Below, one piece after another: positions 22,927-63,831 of a stretch of 64,000 nt of DNA (the stretch's first letter is position 1; each line of letters starts with the position of its first letter). A model generated the notes under the pieces. It was given only the letters and a program-made list of their open reading frames with translations. It searched no databases and was not told the DNA's origin. The position numbers were made by a program, and so were the translations under genes. The DNA comes from an uncultured delta proteobacterium (GTDB lineage Bacteria > Desulfobacterota > Binatia > UBA9968): positions 64,001 to 128,000 of the forward strand of contig CAVTUQ010000005.1 in assembly GCA_963737905.1 (NCBI GenBank). Direction: 5' to 3'.

Positions 22927-26151
<3,225 letters not shown>

Positions 26152-36692: not shown

Positions 36693-37165
36693 TTTTGCGG
36701 CGAGGTGATTTTTGTCCCTTCCACCGGGTAGTGTTTTTGATACCAGCCGACAATGCCCTCGTCGAGGACTTTCATGTTGCGGTAACCCTTTTCGTAGAGA
36801 ATGCCATAGGCCAAACTGGCCAGGTGATGGGGACAAGCTCAATACAAGATGACTAATCGATCCTTGGGAATGCTTTGCACATAAGCATTGAACTCCGTGA
36901 GGGGCGCAGATATCGCGCCCAAAATGTGCACCTCACGGTACTCTTCGTCAGTGCGCACGTCGATGATCAGCGGCTTTTTTCCCGATTGGATATCTTTCGT
37001 GAGCTCATCCACAGAAATTAGTACAACGTTTGCCGGGGGTGATTGCTGGGCGAATTGGGGATATTTCGATGGATCGGCTTCGGCCGGCTGGCATCCGAAA
37101 AGAACACCCGCCAAAACTCCGACAATGAAGAAAGAGCTTGCTCGTGGACCAGGAAGGAGCTTCAT
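36689..37165 (-). CDS. rhodanese-domain lipoprotein, probable selenoprotein (UGA at 36839-36841 read as Sec), 158 aa
   Basis: Lipobox LFGC, IIDVR, HILGA, then [48 protein letters not shown], which completes the rhodanese fold. Final TGA overlaps the queC ATG. Confidence 0.85.
36804..36830 (-). promoter_or_regulatory. putative bacterial SECIS hairpin
   Basis: CCAU-caccu-GGCCA-GUU-UGGCC-u-AUGG begins 8 nt after the UGA; apical-loop G is the 23rd base after the UGA. Confidence 0.6.
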
Positions 37166-38040
37166 GGTTTGCCTCCATCGTTTTTGTAGTTGCTATACTG
37201 CGCCAGGGCATCCAAGCTCTGGGTGCCCATGTATCGCTGGCCGTTGATTACCCAGGTGGGATAATTTTTTATCCCTGCATCGTCGCAGACCGCAGTTTGT
37301 CGAGATCCCGCGCCCGCTGAGCTACACTCGATATATGGAAGGCGGCGCTCGGAACTGCCGAAAAGCTCCTTTTGCTCGGCACAGTGCGGGCACCAGGATG
37401 CGCCGTAAAATTTAGCGTCGGTTTGCGCGAGATGTTCGGCCAAGCCGCGGATCCAGGGATCCTCGGGACCAGGGGCTTTACCCAGATAGCCGGCATAGTG
37501 GAGATGCAACGCGACCACTAGGACGAGAGCTGTCCCAACCGACTTGCCGAGCCAGGGGCCCCAAGAAAAGTGAGGTAAATTGGCGGGCTTTTGAAGAAGC
37601 AAGGTGACGAAAATTACTGTCATCAACCCCAAAGAAGTCAGGCAGTAGGGGCAGGCGGCCTGCAGCACGAAAAAGGAGATCCCGGTCAGGTATAAACTGT
37701 AGAGGAGTCCAATGACGGTGACGAACCAAGCGAACTTCCACTGGCTGTCGGCATACTTGTTCCAGGCGATGGCGGCCAGCAAAGCGTACGTTAGAAAGCC
37801 CCAGAACGACGTCGGCATGCCAAGTAAGGTCGACCAGCGGCTATTCAAAACAACATCACAGGCGCTACCCACCGTACAGCCGGCCACCAGCTTTCCTTGC
37901 CATGCGTTGAAAGTGAGATAGGCAGTCAACCCCATGCCGATGAGAGCGAGAATGAAGAGCGGCCAGTTCGGGCCCTCGCGCAATAAGCCCTGTTTATTTC
38001 CTCTCACGTCGGTTTTCTTATGCTTGGCTGACTTGGCCAT
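37162..38040 (-). CDS. VKOR (DsbB analogue) fused to a thioredoxin-like domain
   Basis: C-x6-CDVV..SRWS, CPYC; C-terminal FYGASWCPHC and YPTW. Confidence 0.93.
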   Translation of the reverse strand: MAKSAKHKKTDVRGNKQGLLREGPNWPLFILALIGMGLTAYLTFNAWQGKLVAGCTVGSACDVVLNSRWSTLLGMPTSFWGFLTYALLAAIAWNKYADSQWKFAWFVTVIGLLYSLYLTGISFFVLQAACPYCLTSLGLMTVIFVTLLLQKPANLPHFSWGPWLGKSVGTALVLVVALHLHYAGYLGKAPGPEDPWIRGLAEHLAQTDAKFYGASWCPHCAEQKELFGSSERRLPYIECSSAGAGSRQTAVCDDAGIKNYPTWVINGQRYMGTQSLDALAQYSNYKNDGGKP

Positions 38041-38053
38041 GGGAACGCTCCTA

Positions 38054-38701
38054 TTATCCTTTAACCAAAGTTGCGACGTCTTTTTTTAGTCGCTCTAATG
38101 CCTGCGGGTCTCGACTATCGTAATAGCCCCGAATCTCGGCTTGCTTGTCGATCAATACGAACCTTGGGCTGTGCATGATAATGCTTTCCGAGCTGCCCGC
38201 GTTGGCGACCGGAACCGCACTCAACTTGAATCCTTCTTGCACGAGCCGGGTGATGTCCTCTTTATCGCCGGTGAGAAAGAGCCAGCGGATTGAATCAGCC
38301 TTATAGCGATCCGCGTAGCGGGAGAGTACCTCAGTTGTATCCTTTTCGGGATCCACGGAGAAGGAAACCAGTTTCAATCCCGCTTTGTCTTTCCATTGCT
38401 CCTGAAGCTGCGCCATTTCTGCGGTTTGCATTGGGCAGGTATCGGTGCAAGTCGTGTAAATAAAGTCGGCGATCCAAATCGACCCCCGGAGGTCGGCCAG
38501 AGTGGTCGCCTTGCCGCTTCGCTCCACGAGAGAAAATTTAGGCACAGTTCCATAGCGGCTCATGCCTTCGAGGGGATTGGCATTCCACCCCGTCAATCCC
38601 GGTCTGGGTGCGAGCTTCAGCCAAAAAAAGGTACCGACGATAATTCCCAAACCGAGCACGGAGACGCCCAGCAGAAGAAAGCGCGCTTTTGAGAAGTTCA
38701 T
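38054..38701 (-). CDS. SCO1/SenC family copper chaperone
   Basis: TM anchor, FIYTTCTDTCP (CxxxC), SVDPEKD, W.FLTG, conserved His in HSPRF. Confidence 0.95.
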   Translation of the reverse strand: MNFSKARFLLLGVSVLGLGIIVGTFFWLKLAPRPGLTGWNANPLEGMSRYGTVPKFSLVERSGKATTLADLRGSIWIADFIYTTCTDTCPMQTAEMAQLQEQWKDKAGLKLVSFSVDPEKDTTEVLSRYADRYKADSIRWLFLTGDKEDITRLVQEGFKLSAVPVANAGSSESIIMHSPRFVLIDKQAEIRGYYDSRDPQALERLKKDVATLVKG

Positions 38702-48024: not shown

Positions 48025-48582
48025 TCACGGCCCCGGCGGCACCTTGTCGACGAGTTTTCCATTTGTGTAAAGCTCGTAGCCTTGGATGCCGAGCTCGTAA
48101 CCGCGGGGCGGATGGTCCGACATATCCAACACGACCAAGTCCAAAACAATCGTGGTCTCGCCTTGGGGGCGAATCTCGAAAGAAAGCTTGATGGGGCCGA
48201 CGGTGTTCTTGATCTTAGTACTCCGTGGCCCCTTCTTCAGGAGACCGCTGACTTCCTTGAGCATCAAATGAATGGCATCGAAGGCTCCCGGAGCGAGGCT
48301 GCCGCGAAAGATTCGACCGCTGTTCTTGCCGACGTATTTTGTCAGATCGATGGATTCAGGAGCCGCAGCCAAGCCTTTCCAGCCGCTTTGCCAGAACTTG
48401 AATCCAGGCTTAGGGCTAATCAAAATTTCGCCGATAGTGAGGGTTAGTTGCGAGAAGTCGCCGATGGCCTCGCGGTGATCTTTAATTCGAACTTCGAAAG
48501 TCCCCTGTTCTGCGGCTCCGGCAGGAGCAGCGAGAAAGAGAACTAAAATAAGGAGCAGCAACCGGCTGGAAATGCTGGTCAT
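48025..48582 (-). CDS. exported DUF4382-like protein
   Basis: Signal peptide (AAPAGA); pattern G.FEVRIKD..F..L.LTI..IDL..L.PG.F..I.L..T.IVLD; ATGA coupling to the SCO gene. Confidence 0.7.
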   Translation of the reverse strand: MTSISSRLLLLILVLFLAAPAGAAEQGTFEVRIKDHREAIGDFSQLTLTIGEILISPKPGFKFWQSGWKGLAAAPESIDLTKYVGKNSGRIFRGSLAPGAFDAIHLMLKEVSGLLKKGPRSTKIKNTVGPIKLSFEIRPQGETTIVLDLVVLDMSDHPPRGYELGIQGYELYTNGKLVDKVPPGP

Positions 48583-49190
48583 TGCCGGTTCGAGGAATCG
48601 AGCGAAACCATGTCCCTGAGAATTTCTTTTTCCTGCCATTTGTCGGTGTAATAATCGACTCTGCGAATCCCCCGCCGGTCGATCAGAGTGGCCAGCGTAG
48701 TGTGCTGAATTTGACCGTCCGGCCTCTTTCGTACCGTCACGCCGAATGCTTTCCAAACCTTGGCCAGGTCTTGCTTGGGTCCCGTGAGAAAGAGCCAATG
48801 ATTGAAATCAGCTTTGAACTGCTCCGCATAGCTTTTCAAAGCCGCGGGAGTGTCCCGCTCGGGATCGGTGGTGATGGTTAGCAACAGGTAGTCGTCCACC
48901 TTCTTTTCCTGCAAGGTCCGTTGGATGCTAGCGAATTTTGCTGTCAGAAGCGGGCAGACATCGGGACAGGTTGTAAAGACGAAAGTTGCCAGTACGATTT
49001 TTCCCCGGGAGTTTGCGAAGTGAAAAGGCTTGTCGTTCTGATCGACGAGGGTAAACTCCGGCACCGCCGTTTGAATTGCCTTTCGGCCGATTTCAGGTTT
49101 CTTCGGCAGAATAGGCAAATGAGGAAACGCCGGAGCGGCGCAAAGGCTCAATAAAATCGTAGTCGATGCGAGGAGCCGGCTAATGCTCAA
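48579..49190 (-). CDS. SCO family protein
   Basis: FVFTTCPDVCP, TTDPERD, WLFLTG, QHT; TTG start inferred. Confidence 0.93.
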   Translation of the reverse strand: MSISRLLASTTILLSLCAAPAFPHLPILPKKPEIGRKAIQTAVPEFTLVDQNDKPFHFANSRGKIVLATFVFTTCPDVCPLLTAKFASIQRTLQEKKVDDYLLLTITTDPERDTPAALKSYAEQFKADFNHWLFLTGPKQDLAKVWKAFGVTVRKRPDGQIQHTTLATLIDRRGIRRVDYYTDKWQEKEILRDMVSLDSSNRQ

Positions 49191-50070
49191 CTTTGAATTC
49201 GTAGGTAACATCGAGATGCTTCGTTCCGTCCGGTATATCGCCGCGAACCACGTAGGTGCTGGAATAGCTCTGTTCCTCCCCGGGTGGAATTCTTACCGGC
49301 AGAAGCAGAGCGCATTCGACGAGGTCCAGGTGCTCGGCCAGAGCCGCAGGTTCGACCCGATGGTTAATGCGCGCAAAAACCTCCTTGTCAGTCAAGTTCT
49401 TGACTCGATAGGCGATGGTAAAAGGCTCGTTCGGTTGGGTGACGGTCTCTTTGATCGTAGGGCCAGCTTCGATGCCGCTATCTTGCGGCACCAATGTCGT
49501 AAAGCTCACTCTCACTCCGGACGCCCAGTCGAAGAATAGACGCCAACTGTTACCTTCTTTGACCAAGGTAAAATCTTCTTGTCCTTCAATGACCTCCAAG
49601 CCGTTTCTTCGCTTCAAGGCGTCGATGGACGTAAGCAGCTTCTTTTGTTCATTCAGTGGAAGCGCGTTGAGCCGCTCCTCATCCCAATCCAACAGCAACG
49701 TCCCCAGGCCGTTCATATCCGGTGCCTTGAAGGCCAAGGTGATCCGTGCGCGGTTATTCTCTATTTTGATTTGCGCTGGCCTGAATTCAATAAACTCGGA
49801 TAGCTTTTTGGCCGCTTCCAGAGCGAGACCGCCAAACGGGCCTCGCTCGCGGACGTAAACCCGTTCTTCCTTTAACCCCTTATCCTCTGAGGAGACGAAT
49901 CGGTAGGCTTGTTTGAAATCGCGGGAGTAAATGGCCCTCAAATACTTGGTGAGAATGCGCACTGACTGCTCGTCGTCTGCCTTGTGAAGTCCCTCCGTAA
50001 GCACATAAGACGCGGGCAGGACGAGCAATAACGTTGCCGCGACGAACAAAATAAAAGGTTTGAGGTGCAT
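49180..50070 (-). CDS. exported two-domain protein, paralog 1 (NTF2-like N-terminus, Cox11/CtaG-like C-terminus)
   Basis: Signal/TM; YLRAIYSRDF..AYRFVS; C-terminal VKN..ARINHRVEP..LDLVEC..PPGEEQ. Domain calls are by eye. Confidence 0.7.
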   Translation of the reverse strand: MHLKPFILFVAATLLLVLPASYVLTEGLHKADDEQSVRILTKYLRAIYSRDFKQAYRFVSSEDKGLKEERVYVRERGPFGGLALEAAKKLSEFIEFRPAQIKIENNRARITLAFKAPDMNGLGTLLLDWDEERLNALPLNEQKKLLTSIDALKRRNGLEVIEGQEDFTLVKEGNSWRLFFDWASGVRVSFTTLVPQDSGIEAGPTIKETVTQPNEPFTIAYRVKNLTDKEVFARINHRVEPAALAEHLDLVECALLLPVRIPPGEEQSYSSTYVVRGDIPDGTKHLDVTYEFKVEH

Positions 50071-50115
50071 CTGTTAATTTCTTTTAAGAACCCGTTAGGG
50101 AACATGTCTGCCCTG

Positions 50116-50703
50116 TTACTTTTTGGCCGGGACGGTCCACAGATAAATTGTCCGGCCGTCTACCCGCTCGGTCTTGTCAGGTTTCCAGTCCCCCATATCA
50201 AAGGCATGGGAGACGACGCGGGAGCCGGGCTTCATTTGACTCAAGACATGGGGCTTGAGTTTTAAGTTCACGTCCGGCAGCAGGTACATCGTCACCACCG
50301 ACGCGCCCGACAGATCCACGGTCAAGATATCTTGTTGCTTAATTTCGGCGAGTTCCTGTACGCCGGCTTTGCGAATATTCTCCCGCGATTGTTTCACAAG
50401 ATCGCCGTCGACATCGAATCCCACGGACCGGGCGCCTTTTTTGGCTGCTGTGATGACGATTCTGCCGTCACCGGAACCCAGATCGTAAACCACATCGCCT
50501 TTTTTAACACCGGCCAGCTCGATCATTTTGTCCACGACTTCTTGTGGGGTGGGAACGAAGGGGACGATTTTTTTGGATTCCAAATCTTGGGCCTGAGCCG
50601 AGCGCGGTGCGAGAGTCCTTGGACTCGGATCAAAAGCTTCAAGTCCAGTTACGGCCAGGAATAGTGACAGACAGAAAAACGCGAAGCGGTTGAATGCTCT
50701 CAT
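50116..50703 (-). CDS. class I SAM-dependent methyltransferase with a signal-like N-terminus
   Basis: VPFVPTP, YDLGSGDGR, YLLP, PGSRVVSH. Confidence 0.92.
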   Translation of the reverse strand: MRAFNRFAFFCLSLFLAVTGLEAFDPSPRTLAPRSAQAQDLESKKIVPFVPTPQEVVDKMIELAGVKKGDVVYDLGSGDGRIVITAAKKGARSVGFDVDGDLVKQSRENIRKAGVQELAEIKQQDILTVDLSGASVVTMYLLPDVNLKLKPHVLSQMKPGSRVVSHAFDMGDWKPDKTERVDGRTIYLWTVPAKK

Positions 50704-50833
50704 TTGTTTTGTTGCCTCCTCAGCAAGCGACGACGTCTAAATGTAGGCCACCAGATAACGCTTTTAGTTAATCATAAAAAAAGCACCGTCGCCAGTCGCT
50801 TATTCCCATTGGCGATGGCCTCGCGGTGAGACC

Positions 50834-50867
50834 TTGAACTGTTTGAACGGCTTGAACGTTTTGAACT
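50834..50867 (+). repeat. nonamer tandem repeat (TTGAACnnn)x4
   Basis: ttgaactgt ttgaacggc ttgaacgtt ttgaact. Confidence 0.8.
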
Positions 50868-50878
50868 TCTAGTTCGCC

Positions 50879-51487
50879 TTAATGAGCGAGTTTCGGTTTC
50901 TCTTCCAACAGCGCGGAAGTATCGCGCACCAGATCCTTGAACTGCCACTTCTCGCCGAAGAAATTAAATCGGCGAATCCCCTGGCGGTCGATCACCGTAG
51001 TCAGGCTGGTGTGCTGGACGAGGCCGCGCCCTTTTTTGATCACTCTGACATCGAAGCCCTTCCATACCTGTTTCAGTTGTGACTCGCTGCCGGTTAAGAA
51101 GGCCCAATTTTGAAAATCTGCGCCGTATCGTTGCGCATAGGATTTAAGAACTTTCGCTGAGTCCACCTCGGGATCGGTGGTGATGCTGACCAAAAACAGG
51201 TTGCCGGCATGTTCATTCTTGAGGGTGCGCTGGAGCTGGGCAAAGTTGGCGGTAAACAAGGGGCAGACATCCGTACAGGTGGTGAAAATGAAATTGAGCA
51301 CGATCACCTTGCCGCGCAAGGTCGTTGAATCAAAGCGATTGCCCTCTTGGTTTAGCAGGACAAAGGCCGGAGCCTTGGTGTTTGGCGTTGCCGAAGTCGG
51401 CGGAACTTCTCGTGGAGCGCCGGGCAAATGAGCATGAAGGTCTAATGGAAACAGGACTAGAAATAGCACTGCAAGCAGGGTGCGCAT
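50879..51487 (-). CDS. SCO family protein
   Basis: Signal ending LHA|HLP, FIFTTCTDVCP, TTDPEVD, WAFLTG, QHT. Confidence 0.93.
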   Translation of the reverse strand: MRTLLAVLFLVLFPLDLHAHLPGAPREVPPTSATPNTKAPAFVLLNQEGNRFDSTTLRGKVIVLNFIFTTCTDVCPLFTANFAQLQRTLKNEHAGNLFLVSITTDPEVDSAKVLKSYAQRYGADFQNWAFLTGSESQLKQVWKGFDVRVIKKGRGLVQHTSLTTVIDRQGIRRFNFFGEKWQFKDLVRDTSALLEEKPKLAH

Positions 51488-51488
51488 T

Positions 51489-52355
51489 TTATTTAAGCAG
51501 TCTAAAATCATAGGTCAGGTTTAACTGGTGCACGCCTTCGGGCAAGCCCCCTCTTAAGAGATACCTGGCAAAATATTCTTGCTCTTTTCCCGGCTGCAGG
51601 GTGATCGGCAGAAGAAAGCCGCATTCAACGAAATCTAGAAAATCAGCAACGTCCTGAGGCTCCACCAGATGGCCGATACGAGCGACGACCGGTTGATGGG
51701 CGCGATTTTTGACCCTAAGAAGAATTTCAAATAGGTCTCCAGGTTGGACCACCACTTCGCTCTTGGATAAAGCTACGTCCAAATCCGCCGCATCGGCGAG
51801 CTCAAGCCGCAAGGGTATTTTAACGCCGGACGACCAATTGAGAAAAATCCGCCACTCATTGCCTTCTTTGACTAGTTCGAGTTTTTCCTCAAGTTCGATC
51901 ATCTCGAAAGATCCGTCCCGTTTCTTTTTCTCCCAAGACTCGATCAGCTGCCTGCGCTCATCGACGGATATTGCGTTCAACCGCCGGGGATCCAAATTAA
52001 AAAGTTGCGCGGGCTCGGGAATGCCAATCTTGGTGACTGCCTCGATCCGGTCGGGCGCCAGTTGTTTTTGAGCCGGCTTGGTTTCGATGAAACTAGCCAG
52101 TTTTCTTGACGCTTCCAGGGCGAAACCCATAAAAGCGCCCCGTTGCTGCGCGTATCGACTCAAATCTCTGACACGCTGGTCGGCGGTGGAAATGTAACGG
52201 TAAGCCTCGATGTAATCGCGGGCGTAAGTCGCGCGCAAATAGCTTTGGATGACCAGCGCGGGATCGCCGAGGTTGGCTTGCTGCTCGGCGGCTTTTAATT
52301 TTGGACCGGCTGCGACGACCAGAAAGATTGTGACGATGGCTGCCAGCAGTTTCAT
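51489..52355 (-). CDS. exported two-domain protein, paralog 2 (Cox11/CtaG-like C-terminus)
   Basis: YLRATYARDY..AYRYIS; VKN..ARIGHLVEP..LDFVEC..LQPGKEQ. Confidence 0.7.
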   Translation of the reverse strand: MKLLAAIVTIFLVVAAGPKLKAAEQQANLGDPALVIQSYLRATYARDYIEAYRYISTADQRVRDLSRYAQQRGAFMGFALEASRKLASFIETKPAQKQLAPDRIEAVTKIGIPEPAQLFNLDPRRLNAISVDERRQLIESWEKKKRDGSFEMIELEEKLELVKEGNEWRIFLNWSSGVKIPLRLELADAADLDVALSKSEVVVQPGDLFEILLRVKNRAHQPVVARIGHLVEPQDVADFLDFVECGFLLPITLQPGKEQEYFARYLLRGGLPEGVHQLNLTYDFRLLK

Positions 52356-53353
52356 TATAAGTTGTCGCGTGTTGTGGAGGTTGTTGCTTTTGCGGCATTC
52401 CGTCGTGGCGTAGTTGTCTTGGAATATGCGCTAGGGGGCGTCGGGAAGGGCTCGAGCTTGAATTCATAGCTAATGCCGATCGTGCTACCGGTTGCCAATC
52501 CGTCTTTGATCAAATAAGCGCTTGAGATCTCTTGAACGTCGCCGGGTTGAAGCTCAAGTGGTCGAAGGGCGCCGCAGGCGATCATGTCAATATTATTTTC
52601 CATGTCCTGCGGCTCTATGTGATGGACAATCCGCGCCACAATCGGCTGTTTACTCCGGTTCTTGATCTTGAGATCGACCTGGAAGGGCTCGTCTTTTTTC
52701 ACGATGAGCTCACTTTGGACGAATCGAGCTTGTACTTCGCTCGACGCCGCCGAATCGACTTTGAACGTGACTTTGATTCCCGACGCCCAATCGAGAAATA
52801 CCTTCCAACCACCCTTATCCGAGATCAGATCAAATGTCTCCTGGCCCTCGATCATGATCATCTTGCCATCTTTCTTTACTTTCCCCAAGGTTTGGAGCAG
52901 CTGTTCTTGGCGCGGCCGTGAAAGCGCATTGAGCTTCTCCGGATCCCAATCGAACAGAAGGGAAGACAGCTCATCGGCGGTGGGGACTTTGTAACCAACC
53001 TTGTAGTGAGCGAGGTCGGGGCTTAGCTGCTTCTCGATAACCCAGACCTCCATGCTCGCGGCGAGCGTTTGCGCTAGCTCAAGAGCAAAGCCGGTAAAGC
53101 CCCCGGACTGTGAAGCATAACTCTTTTCATTCCACGCAAGTTGGTCCCGGGAGGAAATGTATCGATAGGCGGTTTGGTAATCGCGAGCGTAGCTTGCCTT
53201 GAGATAAGCTTTGACGACGTCAAAAGGTTTTTCCTGAGGAGGCTTTGCGCCGGCCGGATTGAAGTAAAGGATCGCTCCGATCAGGAATGTGAAAACCGCA
53301 GCACCGGCGAGAAGAACCGACGGCCGGGAAACTTTGCGCTTTGTCTCAATCAT
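52355..53353 (-). CDS. membrane-anchored two-domain protein, paralog 3 (Cox11/CtaG-like C-terminus)
   Basis: YLKASYARDY..AYRYIS; IKN..ARIVHHIEP..IDMIAC..LQPGDVQ; start at ATG 53353. Confidence 0.7.
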   Translation of the reverse strand: MIETKRKVSRPSVLLAGAAVFTFLIGAILYFNPAGAKPPQEKPFDVVKAYLKASYARDYQTAYRYISSRDQLAWNEKSYASQSGGFTGFALELAQTLAASMEVWVIEKQLSPDLAHYKVGYKVPTADELSSLLFDWDPEKLNALSRPRQEQLLQTLGKVKKDGKMIMIEGQETFDLISDKGGWKVFLDWASGIKVTFKVDSAASSEVQARFVQSELIVKKDEPFQVDLKIKNRSKQPIVARIVHHIEPQDMENNIDMIACGALRPLELQPGDVQEISSAYLIKDGLATGSTIGISYEFKLEPFPTPPSAYSKTTTPRRNAAKATTSTTRDNL

Positions 53354-53577
53354 TTTTTGATGAGGGTTGACGTAGAGTTCAGTATTAGAATTATATCGCA
53401 ACGCGATTCTACCCATTCTCCCCGGCTCAAACAACACCGGGTCAAAGTGTCTTTGGCGGCGATTGGTCATTCCAGAAGACAAAGACAGGCAAGGCTAGCA
53501 AACGCCGGAAATTTTCAACCATGATATAATGCCAACAGAACTGCCCCTGCTTAAGGGCATAAAGATACCTGAAAAAA

Positions 53578-53941: not shown

Positions 53942-54409
53942 CTATCTCTTGCGCAGATCTTGATGAAGCTCGCGACGGGCTGATTCCAGCTGCGTTTGGT
54001 CTTGCCGAAGGTCGCTTCGGTCGCTGCGGATCTCTCTTAAGTCACCGCGGATCTCTTCTCTGCTGGCGCCATTGCGTCGGTCTTTTCTCAGCTCCTGATA
54101 ATCCCCGCGCAACTCCTGGCGGCCCTGTTTGACTTCATTGCGGGCATTGCGAATATCTTTGAAATCCTGTCGAATCTCAGGCTTATTATGATGCCCACGG
54201 TTGTCATGACGAACATCGCGCCGGTAGTGATTGTCATATCGTCCGCGATGATCCCGTCCGTGGTAGCCGTCGCGCCTCCCGTGATCACCTTTCCACTTGC
54301 TGTGAGAATATTCCTTTCCGTCCTTAGTGTCGGCGGTCGCAGATACTGCTGGGATAACTAGAACCCCCGTAACCATTGCGCTCAAAATGATCGTTCGTAG
54401 ATTTTTCAT
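53942..54409 (-). CDS. exported His/Arg/Asp-rich low-complexity protein
   Basis: AGGAG RBS, signal peptide, HGRRDGYHGRDH stretch, then R(Q/G/S)D coiled-coil repeats. Confidence 0.7.
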   Translation of the reverse strand: MKNLRTIILSAMVTGVLVIPAVSATADTKDGKEYSHSKWKGDHGRRDGYHGRDHRGRYDNHYRRDVRHDNRGHHNKPEIRQDFKDIRNARNEVKQGRQELRGDYQELRKDRRNGASREEIRGDLREIRSDRSDLRQDQTQLESARRELHQDLRKR

Positions 54410-54452
54410 ATCCATTCTCCTTTTCTTGTTAGGGCCGTAGTTAAGTAAACCC

Positions 54453-54728
54453 CTAGCGTCGGTAATCGTCGTCTTCTTGACCTTGGATGTAGTTACCAAT
54501 CAGCGCGCCTGCCCCCAGGCCAACCGCCCCGCCGATGGCTGCGCCGGCTCCGGGATGACCTTTGGCGCTGCCGATAGCTCCGCCAACGGCTGCGCCGCCG
54601 AGAGCGCCGATGCCTGCGCCTTTTTCCCGTGCGGTCAGGGGTCCGCCGGCACAGCCGGCAGCGGCCATGGCGGTCAGACCGATGGCAACGATCGAGGTCG
54701 AGAAGTTGAGTCTCTTTTTGTTGTTCAT
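54453..54728 (-). CDS. glycine-zipper lipoprotein
   Basis: AAGC lipobox; GAGIGALGGAAVGGAIG..GAAIGGAVG; AAGGAG RBS. Confidence 0.85.
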   Translation of the reverse strand: MNNKKRLNFSTSIVAIGLTAMAAAGCAGGPLTAREKGAGIGALGGAAVGGAIGSAKGHPGAGAAIGGAVGLGAGALIGNYIQGQEDDDYRR

Positions 54729-56178: not shown

Positions 56179-56748
56179 TCATAGAGGCGCTCCGGCTTTT
56201 TTCAGCCCTTCACGGGCGCGCTCTGAAGTCATCGGCCCGATGACGACATCGCGGATCGTGCCCTGGGCGTCAATGAAAAATGTCGCAGGCGGGCCGAAGA
56301 TACGATAGGCCCGCTTGACCGTGCTATTCAGGTCCAAGGCGATGGGAAAGACGAGTCCGGCTTCTATGGCATATTCCGTCACGGCGGCGCGAGTGTCTTC
56401 GACGGCAATGCCCAGCACCGCGTAACCGTCCTTGCTCGCCTTGGATGCGAGCCCGTTTATCAGCGGCATTTCCTCCCGGCAGGGATCGCACCAGCTTGCG
56501 AAGAAGTTCATCATCAGGGGTCTGCCGCGAAGCGTATCGAGCCCAATGGGTTTACCATCGAGAGTTCTCAACTCAAAACCGATGGCGGTGCTGCCAACGG
56601 TAGGTGCAGATTTTTGGCCGACTTGGGGGATACCTTGCGTCCAACCGGCGCTCGGATGCAGCGCAAGATCCATCGGAAAACATAACAACGCAAACCATCC
56701 GGCGATGGAGATCAAACGCTTCGTCATTTCCCGCACCGATGGCATCAT
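56179..56748 (-). CDS. TlpA/ResA-family thiol-disulfide reductase
   Basis: NFFASWCDPCREEMP, PATFFID; ATGA coupling to the upstream gene. Confidence 0.93.
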   Translation of the reverse strand: MMPSVREMTKRLISIAGWFALLCFPMDLALHPSAGWTQGIPQVGQKSAPTVGSTAIGFELRTLDGKPIGLDTLRGRPLMMNFFASWCDPCREEMPLINGLASKASKDGYAVLGIAVEDTRAAVTEYAIEAGLVFPIALDLNSTVKRAYRIFGPPATFFIDAQGTIRDVVIGPMTSERAREGLKKAGAPL

Positions 56749-58091
56749 TGTTTCTCTACTCTCGCGTTTTTTAGGACTACCCATGAGTCTTCTCCATCGG
56801 TTTCTGTCCAGGCGACATGGAGTTGATGATTGGAAAGCGCCAACGCCGGCCGGTTGGCATTACCTTTCGCCTGGCTGATTTGCTGGACCGGACTCCACGT
56901 CTTGCCGTCCGGAGCGAGACTGCGGACGAAAATCTGCGACTTGCTCGCTCCATCCAAGTTATCCCATGCAAAATAGACCCGACCGTCTTCGGCTACCGCC
57001 ATCGTCGTGTGGAGTATCTCAGCGGCCGTGTTGGCATGAATCAGTTGCCGCGGCGCGAAGCTTCGACCGCCGTCTTTCGAGACGGTGTAGTAAAGGCCGG
57101 CCTCGCTGACCGAACGGCCCAGGGTAAACCAAGTCACGTGGAGATAGCCACGGGCGTCCCGACCGATGGTGGGACCGGAGTGTGGACAAGACGGGACCTG
57201 CCAGCCATCGTCGCTGATCTCAACCGGCGCGCCGAAGGTCGCGCCGCCATCGGTTGATTGCCGCAAAACGTGGTTGCGAATTTGATTTTTGTCAACCTGG
57301 CGATCCACCATATATACGGTCTTGCCGGCATCGGCGAAGGCGATGCCCAGCCGGCAGCATTCGCACAACCCTTCGCCTACCTTGTAGCTTGCCGTCAGGC
57401 GTTGGCCCGTGGCGCCGATGCGCATCAAATAAAGCGAGCGAGGAATCGGGTTGTCGACTCGGCGATCGATCCAAGCCACCAACAACGTATTATCCGGCGC
57501 AACTTCGACGATCGGAAAGCGCGCTGTGTCTTTGATTTCGTTGAGAGTCTCGGCTGGCGTGAAGCCGCCCTTTCCGTCTTCCATTGCGAAACGAATATTG
57601 GCGCGTGTCTTGTCGCCTTTTTCGTTGGGGATCGACCACACCACATAAGCTTTGTTGTCGGGTCCGAAAGCGACCCTGGGCCCGCCTTCCTCTCCCTCGA
57701 TCGCTTCCAAGAGGCCGTTGATTTGTCTGGGACGCGACCAAGTCTTGCCGTTATCGGCGGAAGAAGCCAGCAAAGCCATGCGCATCGGTGAGGCAGGCCT
57801 TTTCATGCGGGAGTCGTGCTGATGAGCGGGCGATAGCTTGGCTTGAGGCTGCGGCCGGTCGTCGTCTTCCGTCCAGACGGCGAACAATCGGCCGTCGGGC
57901 GCATACCGCAGGAAAGGCGTCGATGGATTCTGCTCGTTTTTCCCGAGCCGTTGCTCCGGTCCGAAGCTGCTTTCGATGGGTTGACGAGCATTGCCCGGCA
58001 CGACGAGATCCGAGCCGCAGCCAAAGAGCATCAGACTGAATATAAGCGGACCTGCAATAATGGCAAGAATTCGGGTGAATTGTGTGTGCAT
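56745..58091 (-). CDS. BNR/Asp-box (sialidase-like) beta-propeller lipoprotein with CECC and CPH motifs
   Basis: LFGC lipobox; Asp-boxes SADNGKTW, STDGGATF, SKDGGRSF, PDGKTW; CECC, CPHSGP. Confidence 0.85.
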   Translation of the reverse strand: MHTQFTRILAIIAGPLIFSLMLFGCGSDLVVPGNARQPIESSFGPEQRLGKNEQNPSTPFLRYAPDGRLFAVWTEDDDRPQPQAKLSPAHQHDSRMKRPASPMRMALLASSADNGKTWSRPRQINGLLEAIEGEEGGPRVAFGPDNKAYVVWSIPNEKGDKTRANIRFAMEDGKGGFTPAETLNEIKDTARFPIVEVAPDNTLLVAWIDRRVDNPIPRSLYLMRIGATGQRLTASYKVGEGLCECCRLGIAFADAGKTVYMVDRQVDKNQIRNHVLRQSTDGGATFGAPVEISDDGWQVPSCPHSGPTIGRDARGYLHVTWFTLGRSVSEAGLYYTVSKDGGRSFAPRQLIHANTAAEILHTTMAVAEDGRVYFAWDNLDGASKSQIFVRSLAPDGKTWSPVQQISQAKGNANRPALALSNHQLHVAWTETDGEDSWVVLKNARVEKQ

Positions 58092-58552: not shown

Positions 58553-59806
58553 TTATTTGACTATGAATTCAACGCGGTCTCGTGCATCCAATTCGGTTTG
58601 ATGATCTTCGGTAACCACCCGAAGCTCCAAGATATGAGACCCCGGTCCAATACCATTCAAGGTTCCTTGCTTCCCTGTGAACATGCCCATTAACTCGCCG
58701 TCGATGTAGGCGTGAACGTGATAGCCACGTTTGCCCTTGGTTAATTTGAAACGTAACGGGACTCTGTCCCCCGTAAAAACTTGCTCCGCTTTGGGAGAAA
58801 TGATCTCAACACCGGCGCCTTCCGCGGGTTTTAGTAACGGGGTGCTAGGCGCGGCGCTGGATGATGCGTTCGCGAGGGCGTTCTGATGTACGGCATGAAC
58901 GCCGGGTGGAAGCACGGTGAGCAGCCCAGTTACGAAAAAAACCAGCAAGGCGAGGAAGCTTTCCGCGCCGATCCGCCTCAAAGCTCTGGGCGCCAGGGAA
59001 AGGTCATTGACATTTCCACGGGCGGCTCGAAGGAGCGCGGGACCTGTGGCAAGAAAGTTGAGCGCGCCGAATCCGAGCATCGTGATGAATAGGACCAGCT
59101 TGAGTAAGAGCACTCGACCGTAGTCAGTGCCGAACAGCGTCCGTAGATTGCCGACCTGAATCCAACTCTGGTAGAGACCGGTAAGAACAAGAACTGCGAC
59201 GCTGCCAAGGGCGAGCCGGGAAAAACGACGGATCATCTCTGCCGTCCAGGACAAAGGAAGAGTCATTTTTTTAATGCCACGATGGAGAATCCAGAAAAGC
59301 GCCAACAGGCCGCCGCCCCAAAGCCCTGTGGCAATCAGATGGGCGGCATCGGCCGCCACGACGACCATCGTATCCTCCTTCACAGCGACGGCATGACTAG
59401 TAAAGCTGCGGCCTGCTACGAGCGGGAGAGCAAGAAAGAAAACGCAGCGTATTGCTTTTACGCTCGCCGCCTTTCTCGCGAACCAGAATAGGATAACCAC
59501 CAAGGCGGCGCCGTAGACTTCCCGTAAGAGCCAGACTTTGCCGCTTTGAGTCATGAAGAGGTAGCGAGAAAGAACGTCCAGGGACGGTACAGCACCCCGT
59601 TGGAGCTTTGCGCCTTGTATCACTAGGGAGACCATGGCGATTATTAGGAAAGCGGCGGTCATGTACGCGCCTGAGAACGTCAGCGTTTGTCTCAGTTCTT
59701 TGGGTTCTCCGCCCGGCAGCAGAAAGCCCGCTGTGACGAGAACGCCGAGCAGAAACCCGAGGACGGCGTAGCCCATCCCTGAGACGATTGCTTCTAACGA
59801 GAGCAT
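58553..59806 (-). CDS. copD: CopD-family copper transport protein with a fused C-terminal His-motif domain
   Basis: TSHA, AAHLIATGLWGGGL, RRFS, T.YG..L..K; extra ~93-aa C-terminal domain. Confidence 0.88.
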   Translation of the reverse strand: MLSLEAIVSGMGYAVLGFLLGVLVTAGFLLPGGEPKELRQTLTFSGAYMTAAFLIIAMVSLVIQGAKLQRGAVPSLDVLSRYLFMTQSGKVWLLREVYGAALVVILFWFARKAASVKAIRCVFFLALPLVAGRSFTSHAVAVKEDTMVVVAADAAHLIATGLWGGGLLALFWILHRGIKKMTLPLSWTAEMIRRFSRLALGSVAVLVLTGLYQSWIQVGNLRTLFGTDYGRVLLLKLVLFITMLGFGALNFLATGPALLRAARGNVNDLSLAPRALRRIGAESFLALLVFFVTGLLTVLPPGVHAVHQNALANASSSAAPSTPLLKPAEGAGVEIISPKAEQVFTGDRVPLRFKLTKGKRGYHVHAYIDGELMGMFTGKQGTLNGIGPGSHILELRVVTEDHQTELDARDRVEFIVK

Positions 59807-59812
59807 GAGCCG

Positions 59813-60193
59813 TTACTTCCCCACCGTTCCCACCGTAAACTGCAGCAGGCCTTCAGTTACGTGAGTGTCCACCGAAAGAACCTGCCACTCGATGGTGTAA
59901 GTTCCGGGACTCACCGGTTTGAGGTCGATGGCTAGAGTGTCTTCAGCCAATTGACGCAGCTTTCCTTGGCTGACCACTTCACCGTTCGCTCCCTTGACTG
60001 CGATCTGGCTAAACGCGATCTCGACACCTTCAGTGAATTGAATGCGCACCTCCCGCGGCGGCTCTTTGACCTTGGCGCCGTTGTTTGGGATGGAGACCGC
60101 CGGATAAGCATGCGCCCATGCAAGCCCTTCCCTGTCTTGTAGTGAAAGGATTAAGAGCGCCGAGCTAAGGGCGATTAAAAACCTGGAATACAT
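59813..60193 (-). CDS. copC: CopC-family copper-binding protein
   Basis: Signal AWA|HAY (His1), S.P..GA, F.E..E, GTYTIEW..SVDTHVTEG. Confidence 0.92.
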   Translation of the reverse strand: MYSRFLIALSSALLILSLQDREGLAWAHAYPAVSIPNNGAKVKEPPREVRIQFTEGVEIAFSQIAVKGANGEVVSQGKLRQLAEDTLAIDLKPVSPGTYTIEWQVLSVDTHVTEGLLQFTVGTVGK

Positions 60194-60989
60194 AAGTTGA
60201 CTCGTAACTGGTTTTGTCCTTTTGGCCGTCGGGGCGCGGGCTCTCTTGGTCGATCTTTACCCGCGCTAGATAAAAATCCGCGGGGCCGATAGCAAAGGTG
60301 ACTCTTCCTTTCTCGTCCGTCGTTTGATCTTGCACCGATGCAGAACCGTCCATGCGACGAACCAGGGTGACCACCTGCCCCCTCGTGGGTTTTCCCTTTT
60401 GGCGCAGCTCCAAAGTCATGCTGCCGCCGGAGAAAACCGCGAGAGGGTTATTGACGGGGATGAATTCCACAGCGTCTTCGCCGGCGATAAGCCGGTCAAA
60501 ACCCTTTAGGTTCTTTGCCGCCGCAATGGTCGGTACTTTAAACGCTCCGAATGCCGTCTTGGCGATGCGCACCGTTACGAGCTTCGGCCCATCTCCCTGC
60601 TGCAGACTTCGCGCCTGACGAGCCACGGCCTGGTAAAGGCCTTCATCGTTTGGGACATACACCGCGAGATAAAAACCCTTGGGCCCTTTCGGGCCGACCT
60701 TTTCTTCGTCCTCCCCCAGATCGACGATGCGGTCCGTAAGCGTATTTTGTTTTCCCTTCGCGTCGACGACTGCCAGCGCAGTGTACTTGCCGTCCCACTT
60801 TCCTGCGATACGGTAGCTCTTGTGTTCATTTGAGTGATTGCCTTGGACGAGAGCGATGTTTGCTACCTGTCCTTTTTCAATGATCGTCGGAGTCACCTCG
60901 ACCCAGCCGTCGTGGCTTAAGGCTGAGAATGGATGGAGAAAAAGCAAGGCGACAAAGAGTGATAAACTTGCTTTACTCATTCGGATCAT
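60165..60989 (-). CDS. DUF4198 (CbiK/NikK-like) periplasmic metal-uptake accessory protein
   Basis: ALS|HDGW, G.H, E.IP..NP, GKP, TTDEKG.V.F. Confidence 0.75.
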   Translation of the reverse strand: MIRMSKASLSLFVALLFLHPFSALSHDGWVEVTPTIIEKGQVANIALVQGNHSNEHKSYRIAGKWDGKYTALAVVDAKGKQNTLTDRIVDLGEDEEKVGPKGPKGFYLAVYVPNDEGLYQAVARQARSLQQGDGPKLVTVRIAKTAFGAFKVPTIAAAKNLKGFDRLIAGEDAVEFIPVNNPLAVFSGGSMTLELRQKGKPTRGQVVTLVRRMDGSASVQDQTTDEKGRVTFAIGPADFYLARVKIDQESPRPDGQKDKTSYESTYVFQVFNRP

Positions 60990-61079: not shown

Positions 61080-61463
61080 TTATTTTTTCGCTATGGCGAA
61101 GGTAAAATCCCCCTCTGTTACATGCGTGTCTTTCGCTAATGCCTTCCAGTAAACGTGATAGGTACCGGACGCCAAGGGTTGAAGATCGACTTCAAGTACA
61201 CTGGCGTCCGGACCGTTTACGCGGCTGTTACCTTTATCGACTTGCTGTTTCATCGAATTGAAGACTGTGATGCTGCTGAAGGCCGGTTCCAGCTCCCCGT
61301 CAAACCAGATCGTCACTTTTGGCGGCGCAACAGGGATCGTCCAGCCAACTCTCGGGTCCGAACGCACCGGAAAAGCGTGCGCCTGGGCGAGGGTTTGAAA
61401 CGCGGTTATGCCGAGTATCAAAGCCAATGACAAGCTCAGAACCATTTTTTCTAGCGGTCTCAT
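61080..61463 (-). CDS. copC: CopC-family copper-binding protein, second copy
   Basis: AQA|HAF, LEPAFS, GTYHVYW..DTHVTEG; ATGA coupling to the upstream gene. Confidence 0.92.
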   Translation of the reverse strand: MRPLEKMVLSLSLALILGITAFQTLAQAHAFPVRSDPRVGWTIPVAPPKVTIWFDGELEPAFSSITVFNSMKQQVDKGNSRVNGPDASVLEVDLQPLASGTYHVYWKALAKDTHVTEGDFTFAIAKK

Positions 61464-62404
61464 CTCGGTATCGGCGTCGGGCCGATCACTCCCCATGGCG
61501 TCCACGTGAAAATATTGGGCCAGAGATCGTCGATGAAAAGATGGATTAAAGCATTTACGCCGGCGTTTTTGCCTGCAACGTTGTTCAACGGTAGCTTCGC
61601 TTCCAAGCCAAGTTCGACGTATCTTCCCACCCATATTAGACCCGGATTAGCGAAAGCAGCGGTCTGGCCGCGATCAGGTTTGGAGGCGTTCGTAGTGAAG
61701 TTAAATTCAACGACCGGAAACATGCGGTCAAACGGCGCACCGAGCCCAACATCCTTAACAAATGATTGCAAATAGGGAACGCTGTAGATCACGGCGACTC
61801 CATAATCGAGCGTGGTTGGATTGTGCTCCTTATCATCGCCGCTGCCGGTTGTCCGGTTAGCTGGATTATTGACGTTAAACTGGCCGTTGATCGAGAAAGG
61901 CTTCAGGTAGGCCAAGGAGTCAGGCAAGTCGCCGAAACCTTTCCCAAAAAAAAGGGCCGGAGAAATGGTAGTGACTCTTTCCGCCACCCTTTGGGGGCCG
62001 ACCCCACCAGGCTCTACCCCTAAGCCGACACTAAAGATACCCTCATGCTCAGGACTTGTCAGAGAAACATATTTGAAGCCGAATTCAGGGTTGCCTGCTC
62101 CCGAGGTACTAGATTCGCCTGCCTCTCTTGGATTGAAAAACAGATAGTCCCATCCGACGGTTACGGCGAAGTCGGGCGTCAGACGCTTCGAGAACTCAAA
62201 ACCGACACTGCTCTCTCTTCCTTCTTTGTTGTTGCTTCCCCATTCGACTTTCAGGAGATCCAATTCGTCGGACGCGAAAGGGTCATCTACGACCAGGGTT
62301 GTCGGAATAAACCGCTTTCCTATGACCCCGTGACCGTACGTCGATCTGACGGCGAAGAATAAACTCACCAGTAAAGACAAACTTATGACGACACATTTTT
62401 TCAT
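61460..62404 (-). CDS. putative small outer-membrane beta-barrel protein
   Basis: Signal peptide then HGVIGKRFIPTTLVVDDP; alternating amphipathic strands; GGGAGG RBS. Confidence 0.7.
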   Translation of the reverse strand: MKKCVVISLSLLVSLFFAVRSTYGHGVIGKRFIPTTLVVDDPFASDELDLLKVEWGSNNKEGRESSVGFEFSKRLTPDFAVTVGWDYLFFNPREAGESSTSGAGNPEFGFKYVSLTSPEHEGIFSVGLGVEPGGVGPQRVAERVTTISPALFFGKGFGDLPDSLAYLKPFSINGQFNVNNPANRTTGSGDDKEHNPTTLDYGVAVIYSVPYLQSFVKDVGLGAPFDRMFPVVEFNFTTNASKPDRGQTAAFANPGLIWVGRYVELGLEAKLPLNNVAGKNAGVNALIHLFIDDLWPNIFTWTPWGVIGPTPIPR

Positions 62405-62903: not shown

Positions 62904-63746
62904 TCAACCTGAAAAGCGCGGCGATCGTGTACGTTGTTGCCGGCGAAACCAGAACACGATCTCAAGAACAAAGAATAGAGCCGCGGCGGTCAATACGATG
63001 GTAGCGGCCGAAGATATGTCCAGATAGAAACTCAAATACATTCCGGTTGCACCGCATACGATCCCGATGAGAGGAGAAAGAATCAACAGCCGTTGAAATC
63101 GATTGGTTAGGTAACGGGCAATGACCGGAGGGATCACCATGGCGGCGGCGACCAAGGTGACGCCGAGAATTTGGGTCGAGGCCAATACCGTGACCGCAAG
63201 CAGGGTAATGAAAATCAGATCGATTTTGCCGGTGGAGACACCGTAGGCAGAAGCAACTTCCGGATCGAAGGTGGCGAACAGTAGTTGCCGGCGCATGATA
63301 ATAAGCGCACAGAAAACGATTAGAGATATGACGATGACGATCCAGAGATCCTTTTGAGTGATGCCGAGGATGTTGCCGAAGAGCGCGACCTCGATGTTGC
63401 GGGTAAAGCTCCGATAGGTCGAGACGATGGCTACGCCGAGGGCAAAACTGGAAGTCGTAACGACACCGATGGCGGCATCGGCCCCGACCCAGCGCCGGTG
63501 GCTGATCAGGTGGATGAGAAAACCGGCAAATAGCGCCCACAGCCCGGCGCCAACAAAGAAATTGACGTTCATCACGTAGCTCAGGACAGCGCCGCCGAAG
63601 ATGGCGTGGGAGAGGCCATGGCCTATGTAGCTCATCCGGCGCAGAACGACGTAGACGCCGATAAAGCCGCAAAGCGCGCCGACGACGACGGCGGCTAGAA
63701 AGCCGTTGCGAAAAAATTCGTATTCAAATGGGACTAACAAGGACAT
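62904..63746 (-). CDS. metal ABC transporter permease (ZnuB/MntB family)
   Basis: G..VVLRRMS..G.GLSHA, DAAIG, LFGNIL, FDPEVA, IPP..A. Confidence 0.95.
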   Translation of the reverse strand: MSLLVPFEYEFFRNGFLAAVVVGALCGFIGVYVVLRRMSYIGHGLSHAIFGGAVLSYVMNVNFFVGAGLWALFAGFLIHLISHRRWVGADAAIGVVTTSSFALGVAIVSTYRSFTRNIEVALFGNILGITQKDLWIVIVISLIVFCALIIMRRQLLFATFDPEVASAYGVSTGKIDLIFITLLAVTVLASTQILGVTLVAAAMVIPPVIARYLTNRFQRLLILSPLIGIVCGATGMYLSFYLDISSAATIVLTAAALFFVLEIVFWFRRQQRTRSPRFSG

Positions 63747-63748
63747 GA

Positions 63749-63831
63749 GTTCAAATCGTTCAAAATGTTCAAGCCGTTCAATCCGTGTTTGGACGTTTTG
63801 AACTTTTTGAACGGCTGGAACGATTTGAACG
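63749..63831. repeat. inverted pair of nonamer arrays (GTTCAAnnn x4 / TTGAACnnn-like x5)
   Basis: gttcaaatc gttcaaaat gttcaagcc gttcaatcc, then ttggacgtt ttgaacttt ttgaacggc tggaacgat ttgaacg. Confidence 0.8.

Follow-up and report, generated by a model that had tools for sequence, protein, structure and literature searches.

A 64,000-nucleotide stretch of DNA from an uncultured delta proteobacterium of the Binatia (GenBank assembly GCA_963737905.1, contig CAVTUQ010000005.1, positions 64,001 to 128,000; hereafter the window) carries three paralogous genes, parA, parB and parC, whose products end in a domain that is, by sequence and by predicted fold, a true homologue of Cox11/CtaG. All three proteins are predicted to be membrane-anchored and to face the periplasm, with an NTF2-like domain in front of the Cox11/CtaG domain. 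Within a two-domain NTF2-Cox11 subfamily, known mainly from Candidatus Binatia and Methylomirabilota, they make up a derived branch; the other branch keeps the CFCF motif together with the same His. What emerges is a large, so far uncharacterised variant within the Cox11 family: its architecture is new, its putative metal site is altered, and its genes sit in a cluster for copper handling that is conserved among Binatia-like soil bacteria. It does not amount to a family new in kind, and its members already carry domain-based tags in databases. Homology, predicted fold, motif conservation, synteny and the finding of no canonical Cox11 in the genome stand on the side of a role as periplasmic copper chaperones that work with SCO proteins through a remodelled Cys/His site, a reading to which we give about an even chance of being correct.

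Three paralogues with an NTF2-like and a Cox11-like domain

The three genes lie in a minus-strand row of seven, which runs from position 53353 to 48025 in the order parC, parB, SCO_b, methyltransferase-like gene, parA, SCO_a and DUF4382 (Table 1). Four junctions in this row overlap or abut, including the parC stop with the parB start and the SCO_a stop with the DUF4382 start, and a SCO gene overlaps the 3' end of both parB (by 23 nt, SCO_b) and parA (by 32 nt, SCO_a). An earlier sequence-only reading of this DNA had described three related genes with a common set of motifs, two of them directly followed by a SCO1/SenC gene, and both statements agree with our analysis. In an alignment of all three proteins, in which the other two paralogues are 38% and 32% identical to parA, every one of the motifs was recovered; in parA numbering these are Y43-L-x-A-x-Y-x-R-D-(F/Y)-x-x-A-Y-R-(F/Y)-x-S60, L134-N-A-(L/I), W176-(R/K)-x-F-x-(D/N)-W-x-S-G185 and K224-N...A233-R-I-x-H237-x-(V/I)-E-P241...D249-(L/F/M)-(V/I)-x-C253...P263-G264. 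The longest open reading frame (ORF) of parC spans 52355-53482, and the Met at its residue 44 places the likely start at 53353, the same end that the earlier reading had given. All three reading frames are intact, and each protein contains exactly one Cys. When a profile of each domain was run against the 31,627 six-frame ORFs of the genome (6.7 Mb, 87% complete), they matched parA, parB and parC only, at E-values of 1e-34 to 1e-75, so that the resemblance among the paralogues is far beyond chance. In one soil study, two RNA libraries yielded contigs that match parts of the methyltransferase gene and of all three paralogues at 90-99% identity. With 16 and 13 of 30 bins covered, the uncovered parts being uninformative and DNA carry-over possible, these contigs give a weak hint that the cluster is transcribed.

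In each paralogue the C-terminal 110 residues match the Pfam profile PF04442 (CtaG_Cox11) above its cut-off of 25 bits (30.9 for parA, 28.0 for parB and 29.3 for parC), over profile positions ~30-146 of 148; scores for the NCBIfam equivalog PRK05089 (32.3, 33.1 and 22.7 bits) lie far below the cut-off of 162. The AlphaFold2 model of parA, built from an 82-sequence alignment, has a predicted local distance difference test score (pLDDT) of 91.4 and a predicted template modelling score (pTM) of 0.81. Among 48,161 representative chains, the top match to residues 184-296 of the model was apoCox11 (1sp0; VIA-align, Z 11.8, root mean square deviation 2.3 Å over 112 residues), and Foldseek ranked 1so9 first for the same domain (E 2.7e-5, template modelling score 0.69 on the target). 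The model thus has the immunoglobulin-like beta fold of the Cox11 soluble domain (1SO9/1SP0), and the Cox11/CtaG pattern that had been picked out by eye at the C-terminus is borne out by profile and predicted structure alike, Foldseek being one of the checks that had been proposed for it.

Residues 25-181 of the parA model form an NTF2-like alpha+beta cone, to which many NTF2-like chains align at Z about 8-11. The cone fold is shared with the NTF2-like superfamily (DUF4878-like lipoprotein domains, the NTF2 domains of Csd6/Pgp2, the CaMKII hub), but no Pfam model matched the N-terminal domain at E 0.1 or better. NCBIfam Rv0361_Cterm gave a weak match to this domain of parC only (E 0.009), and look-alikes in the ESM Atlas scored 0.85 or less, with DUF4878 at rank 12 as a lead only. 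A hydrophobic segment lies near the N-terminus of each paralogue (Kyte-Doolittle 1.9-2.45), and the predicted helix at residues 3-48 of parA includes this anchor.

The putative metal site and its history

Canonical Cox11 binds copper via CxC pairs as a Cu2S4 dimer (PMC6696091, PMC9145763). In an alignment of parA with the Sinorhizobium meliloti protein (1so9), Cys253 and Leu255 take the places of the two Cys of QCFCF, in that order, and His237, which sits 16 residues upstream of Cys253, that of the Phe of FNVTP. The CxC pair is replaced by C-A-L in parA, C-G-F in parB and C-G-A in parC, and this alignment, with the single Cys per protein, upholds the proposal that CFC had been reduced to one Cys. 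The window proteins have in common with S. meliloti Cox11 (1SO9/1SP0) the N-terminal anchor, the immunoglobulin-like beta domain on the periplasmic side, the first of the two CFCF Cys, and the KN, (aromatic or His)-x-V-x-P and PGE segments. They differ from it in having Leu, Phe or Ala for the second Cys and one Cys in total, in carrying a near-invariant His for the Phe/Tyr of (F/Y)NVTP, in the ~150-residue NTF2-like domain between anchor and Cox11 domain, and in being present as three paralogues without cox/cta linkage, which is frequent in the family but not obligatory. Yeast Cox11 has a third functional Cys close to its membrane anchor, and this anchor-proximal Cys is likewise missing from the window proteins.

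The site is conserved well beyond the window. Among 322 C-domains, taken from all fetched proteins and loci and therefore not independent rows, the equivalent of Cys253 is present in 322 and that of His237 in 315, and the second Cys (C-F-C) is kept in 35 and missing in 287. The His237 equivalent is retained in both the CFC and the single-Cys branch, and the His appears to have arisen before the second Cys was lost. Glu240 is found in 86% of the single-Cys group vs 26% of the CFC group, and other acidic residues near the Cys are also more conserved in the former. Mutual information computed over all C-domain rows is dominated by the CFC/single-Cys split.

A word-indexed search returned 525 relatives, and when 1.84 billion cluster representatives were searched exhaustively with a profile, 543 clusters matched at E<=0.001, 273 at 1e-10 and 110 at 1e-30. 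The closest relatives come from Candidatus Binatia metagenome-assembled genomes (MAGs) and are labelled 'cytochrome c oxidase assembly protein CtaG/Cox11' by automatic annotation only. Public records thus already name Cox11/CtaG, and the earlier description of the protein as unrecognised has to be dropped; the idea of a stand-alone new family likewise gives way to that of a derived branch within a two-domain subfamily, whose sister branch keeps CFCF and the same His. No description of an NTF2-Cox11 fusion, a single-Cys Cox11 or this gene cluster was found in full-text literature searches, supplements aside. Across a phylum sample of 151 genomes, which held only four genomes of the same class, PF04442 matched the window's genome only, so that the domain is rare in the rest of this sample. 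A 2022 review confines Cox11_CtaG to alpha-, beta- and gamma-proteobacteria and eukaryotes (PMC9145763), and the lineage of the window lies outside these groups.

CFC-bearing members share both the two-domain architecture and the His with the single-Cys members, and the two forms split at one branch of trees built on the two-domain region, with a support of 99 in FastTree (170 rows, thinned from 285 at 80% identity) and a Shimodaira-Hasegawa approximate likelihood ratio of 98 in a quick IQ-TREE run on a subsample of 63 rows. The trees are unrooted, without a canonical Cox11 outgroup: a pattern scan with CFC-type C-domains and a protein search (6 matches/11 candidates) gave members of the same subfamily only. 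As CFC forms score 85-105 bits on PF04442 vs 25-55 for single-Cys forms, they are closer to the canonical family, and because canonical Cox11 itself has CxC, loss of the second Cys is the natural reading. In the FastTree tree, parA, parB and parC each fall in their own well-supported orthologue clade (62 rows, 16 rows with a support of 100, and 34 rows, respectively), which makes them old paralogues and not recent copies. Two related genomes also encode short proteins of 163 and 144 residues that lie away from the main cluster (L067 8496-8987, plus strand; L068 8743-9177, minus strand) and consist of an anchor and a single-Cys Cox11-like domain without the NTF2-like domain.

The CFCF-type proteins of Candidatus Binatia and Methylomirabilota (e.g. 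L060, L070 and P0161), likewise uncharacterised, resemble those of the window in architecture, in the His and in their neighbours, which are again DUF4382, SCO, VKOR, CopC/CopD and ABC-3. They differ in keeping CFCF, in their higher PF04442 scores, in being single-copy and often fused to DUF4382, and in lacking a SCO gene between the Cox11-like gene and DUF4382. Based on these comparisons, a two-domain branch with CFCF may have come first, sitting with or fused to DUF4382 near SCO, VKOR and metal-uptake genes. The second Cys would then have been lost in the branch of the window, for which one split on the tree could account, and the single-Cys gene would have multiplied into the old paralogues, with a SCO gene probably added directly behind and the gene of a predicted exported methyltransferase in front.

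A conserved copper-handling cluster and its possible roles

Single-Cys relatives were found in 56 loci of public genomes, many of them on contigs that are cut. The order of genes in them is constant: a ZnuB-like ABC-3 permease, an uncharacterised gene, CopC, DUF4198, CopD and, in some, BNR and TlpA-like genes, followed by one to three Cox11-like genes with or without SCO, the methyltransferase gene, a parA-type gene, SCO, DUF4382 and often a third SCO with VKOR. CopD occurs in 38 of the 56 loci, TlpA in 16 and VKOR in 21. In 40/49 loci the methyltransferase gene immediately precedes the last run of Cox11-like genes; SCO directly follows the last Cox11-like gene in 51/53, and DUF4382 follows that SCO in 46/49, so that the link to SCO first noticed in the window holds well beyond this genome. 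Of the 56 loci, 22 hold one Cox11-like copy, 14 hold two and 18 hold three, the remaining 2 having fragments only. Among near-complete related genomes, several have a single copy, which makes an obligate hetero-oligomer of the three paralogues, as had been entertained, unlikely.

A further 32 loci were found with CFC-type C-domains, labelled Candidatus Binatia, Methylomirabilota or, for single MAGs, otherwise. Thirty of them hold the two-domain gene, which is fused to DUF4382 in 16/30 and adjoined by SCO, usually followed by VKOR, in 23/30; the methyltransferase gene was seen in none of the 32. Fusions of the Cox11-like protein with DUF4382 occur in both orders. Two Binatia loci (L103 and L104) have ABC-3, DUF4382, SCO and VKOR in order with only a short C-terminal-like stretch and no full Cox11-like gene, which demonstrates that this module can exist without one.

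The genome of the window has two A-type oxidase operons, both on other contigs. One reads COX2-COX1-CtaA-CtaB-COX3-COX3-COX4; in the other an alternative complex III cluster is followed by SCO, a cytochrome c-fused COX2, COX1 and COX3. A genome-wide search for canonical Cox11 returned no PF04442 matches other than parA, parB and parC, and neither Caa3_CtaG nor PCuAC was found in searches of this 87% complete genome. Two multicopper oxidase genes lie elsewhere in it. PF02461 (copper monooxygenase) had no match, an uninformative result given that control genomes gave none either. Among 41 related genomes, PF04442 had matches in 30, and because every one of these starts near profile position 30, no canonical Cox11 is among them.

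Taking these data together, the single-Cys proteins would still handle copper at the outer face of their membrane for the assembly of copper enzymes, most likely to supply CuB in the two haem-copper oxidases of A type. The putative copper site would consist of the invariant Cys253 and His237, with Glu240 as a possible third ligand, in place of the Cu2S4 cluster of canonical dimers, and each Cox11-like protein would work with its own downstream SCO, which TlpA may keep reduced and CopC/CopD may supply with copper. This arrangement is comparable to the PCuAC-to-Sco/Cox11 relay of Rhodobacter and Paracoccus (PMC9145763), in which periplasmic copper chaperones likewise act together; a TlpA-type reductase is nearby, and the pairing of Cox11-like with SCO genes is reminiscent of that relay. 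It differs in that no PCuAC was found here and in that SCO lies directly behind the parA and parB genes. DUF4382 may stand in for PCuAC.

Several observations weigh against this reading. Copper binding on Cys253 and His237 is an assumption, and because Cu2S4 chemistry is impossible with one Cys per chain, the site must either be of another kind or draw on a partner for completion. The acidic residues gained near the Cys would fit a different metal, or a different chemistry, just as well. Within the single-Cys rows, the best pair between segments by mutual information (236-255) ranks only 21st, a weak signal that does not fix the strand register. The direction of the Cys loss is deduced from the canonical motif and the Pfam scores, the tree being unrooted. 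Neither oxidase operon holds a Cox11 gene, and the Cox11-like cluster is adjacent to neither. COX1 is present in 37 of the 41 relatives (tallies that include two genomes flagged as unpublished, used for the counts only: G162, with one match, and G156, with no match and COX1 present). It accompanies the family profile in 28 of the 29 genomes with a match but is also present in 9 of the 12 without, which leaves the phyletic distribution with no discriminating power. Two genomes that are 98-99% complete (G176 and G180) have COX1 and no match to either PF04442 or the family profile. Because such COX1 genomes lack the Cox11-like protein, an A-type oxidase of this lineage does not, as a rule, depend on it.

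Part of this evidence fits a general periplasmic role in the uptake, buffering or distribution of copper, in which the Cox11-like proteins would be membrane-tethered carriers for import, for detoxification or for other copper enzymes (multicopper oxidases, for example) and not for CuB insertion. The genes sit with a ZnuABC-like importer, CopC, CopD and DUF4198 and not with cox genes, some relatives with COX1 have no Cox11-like gene, the ABC-3/DUF4382/SCO/VKOR module of L103 and L104 does without it, and the two multicopper oxidases of the genome would offer other destinations. Against this, the sole established role of the Cox11 fold is CuB assembly (PMC9145763, PMC6696091), searches of this genome, with its two A-type oxidases, turned up no further Cox11, Caa3_CtaG or PCuAC, and the cluster itself encodes no alternative target enzyme. 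We regard such a general role as a serious but somewhat unlikely alternative.

Loss of the CxC pair also raises the question of whether the single-Cys proteins bind metal at all, since they could instead act as thiol-redox partners, with Cys253 forming a transient mixed disulfide with the SCO CxxxC pair, or as adaptors that dock SCO and DUF4382 at the membrane. Thiol-redox proteins abound in the surroundings, where a TlpA-like gene, VKOR and three SCO genes are found, and the overlaps between Cox11-like and SCO genes suggest co-translation. However, the lone Cys is the canonical copper-binding residue and is kept in every C-domain, the His retained on both sides of the tree looks like part of a metal site, and the Cys is not embedded in a thioredoxin-like or other known redox motif; we therefore consider this explanation improbable. 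That these are ordinary Cox11/CtaG proteins working like the proteobacterial one, as automatic annotation has it with its 'cytochrome c oxidase assembly protein' names and as PF04442 scores above the cut-off might suggest, is very hard to reconcile with the missing CxC, the low PRK05089 scores, the extra NTF2-like domain, the three paralogues and the lack of cox linkage.

Returning to copper chaperones that work with SCO, a more far-reaching version can be conceived, in which a new periplasmic copper relay with the single-Cys proteins at its core replaces the Cu2S4 dimer, a heteromeric Cys/His site is built with the downstream SCO and its predicted free-His N-terminus, the methyltransferase seen only in this branch modifies a partner and three modules serve different copper centres or oxidases. 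We put this version forward as a speculative proposal that is probably not correct as a whole.

The route by which copper gets to the buried CuB site is not yet well understood. Outside proteobacteria and mitochondria the copper factor of this site is often unknown (PMC9145763), and a review lists open questions even for canonical Cox11 (PMC6696091). Here the Cox11 fold appears, with an added NTF2-like domain, in lineages where Cox11 is not supposed to occur, and one large branch drops half of the canonical copper-binding pair and keeps a His. If copper is bound, this would be a second ligand solution on the Cox11 scaffold, the CFC and single-Cys forms would offer a natural comparison for dissecting copper transfer, and functions might be found for DUF4382 and for the puzzling exported methyltransferase. 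If it is not, a metallochaperone fold has been turned to another use. In practice, several hundred sequence clusters bear the automatic label 'cytochrome c oxidase assembly protein' without justification from the motif.

Neighbouring genes in the window

Table 1. Cox11-like genes and their neighbours, with positions in the window.
Feature	Position	Strand	Characteristics
VKOR-family membrane protein	37162..38040	-	constant partner of SCO_c in relatives
SCO_c (third SCO1/SenC)	38054..38701	-	directly after DUF4382 in relatives; 10 kb from the cluster here
DUF4382	48025..48582	-	secreted beta-sandwich; invariant D35-H36 and D156-H157; fused to Cox11-like protein in relatives
SCO_a (SCO1/SenC)	48579..49211	-	PF02630, 109.5 bits; C82xxxC86; His170; predicted mature N-terminus (from His31) His-(I/L)-Pro-x-Pro-Pro
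parA	49180..50070	-	296 aa; anchor 6-24, NTF2-like ~25-181, Cox11-like 184-296; His237 and Cys253
Class I SAM-methyltransferase-like	50116..50703	-	Sec-type signal peptide ending A-x-A-Q-D
SCO_b (SCO1/SenC)	50879..51511	-	PF02630, 96.2 bits; CxxxC (C79, C83); His167
parB	51489..52355	-	288 aa; architecture as parC; motif C-G-F; start overlaps parC stop
parC	52355..53353	-	anchor, NTF2-like and single-Cys Cox11-like domain; motif H..EP...C-G-A; Pro/Thr-rich C-terminal tail
TlpA-like thioredoxin-fold	56179..56784	-	CxxC at residues 99 and 102; directly upstream of Cox11-like genes in relatives
BNR/sialidase-like beta-propeller	56745..58091	-	C-x-C-C motif (Cys243, 245, 246); pairs with TlpA-like in relatives
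CopD-domain membrane protein	58553..59806	-	
DUF4198 periplasmic protein	60165..60989	-	
CopC-domain protein	61080..61634	-	
ABC-3 (ZnuB-like) permease	62904..63746	-	ZnuC-like ATPase and ZnuA-like binding protein just past the window end

The two Cys of the CxxxC motif and the distal His of SCO_a (C82, C86 and H170) are invariant in 39 aligned sequences. In SCO_a, SCO_b and most of 36 orthologues the signal peptide ends in an A-x-A/S site that is followed by a near-invariant His-(I/L/V/F)-Pro-x-Pro-Pro, so that the predicted mature N-terminus of both proteins would be a free His and possibly an extra copper site; CopC-type proteins with N-terminal His copper sites offer a comparison. SCO_c is without this motif. 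It recurs with VKOR as a constant pair in both branches of the family (21/56 loci and most CFCF-type loci), which suggests a quinone-linked redox partner for a SCO protein, and the VKOR protein of the window has ~145 extra C-terminal residues without a Pfam match.

The methyltransferase-like protein comes closest to NF041081, the model of an archaeal protein-lysine methyltransferase, at 126 bits vs a cut-off of 200. A comparable signal-peptide N-terminus was seen in all 40 relatives examined of the 41 taken from the loci, and an exported S-adenosylmethionine (SAM)-methyltransferase fold is therefore predicted. The fold of DUF4382 is a generic beta-sandwich, with a Bacteroides fimbrial protein as best match (Z 8.6) and nothing in Foldseek at E 0.001 or better. 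Wherever the BNR gene occurs in related loci (15/56), it is paired with the TlpA-like gene. Directly upstream of parC, at 53942-54499 on the minus strand, lies the gene of a secreted 185-aa protein in which a His/Arg/Asp-rich stretch is followed by a charged helical region, and a homologue is found at the same place in one related locus (L005).

Two genes of the contig are broken. That of alanyl-tRNA synthetase (22927-25649, minus strand) falls apart, from 24111 to 24873, into several ORFs that lie in different frames, and the ZnuA-like gene just outside the window (L105 3880-4897, minus strand) is split in two; both look like assembly indel errors or pseudogenes. A terminator that had been suspected by eye after SCO_b (~50779-50826, a GC-rich stem with a T-run) was set aside, as it is absent from the scan list and its folding is no better than that of shuffled sequences (z -1.17). 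Arrays of three to four copies of the 9-bp unit GTTCAANNN lie at 50834-50866 (minus strand), between SCO_b and the methyltransferase gene, and as an inverted pair at 63749-63830 (both strands), a short way upstream of the ABC-3 gene. The 34-nt stretch of these units is all that many unrelated metagenome contigs match, and exact arrays of at least three units occur at 96 places in the 6.7-Mb genome, where window shuffles give an expectation of 0; the unit is a dispersed short repeat and not specific to the copper cluster.

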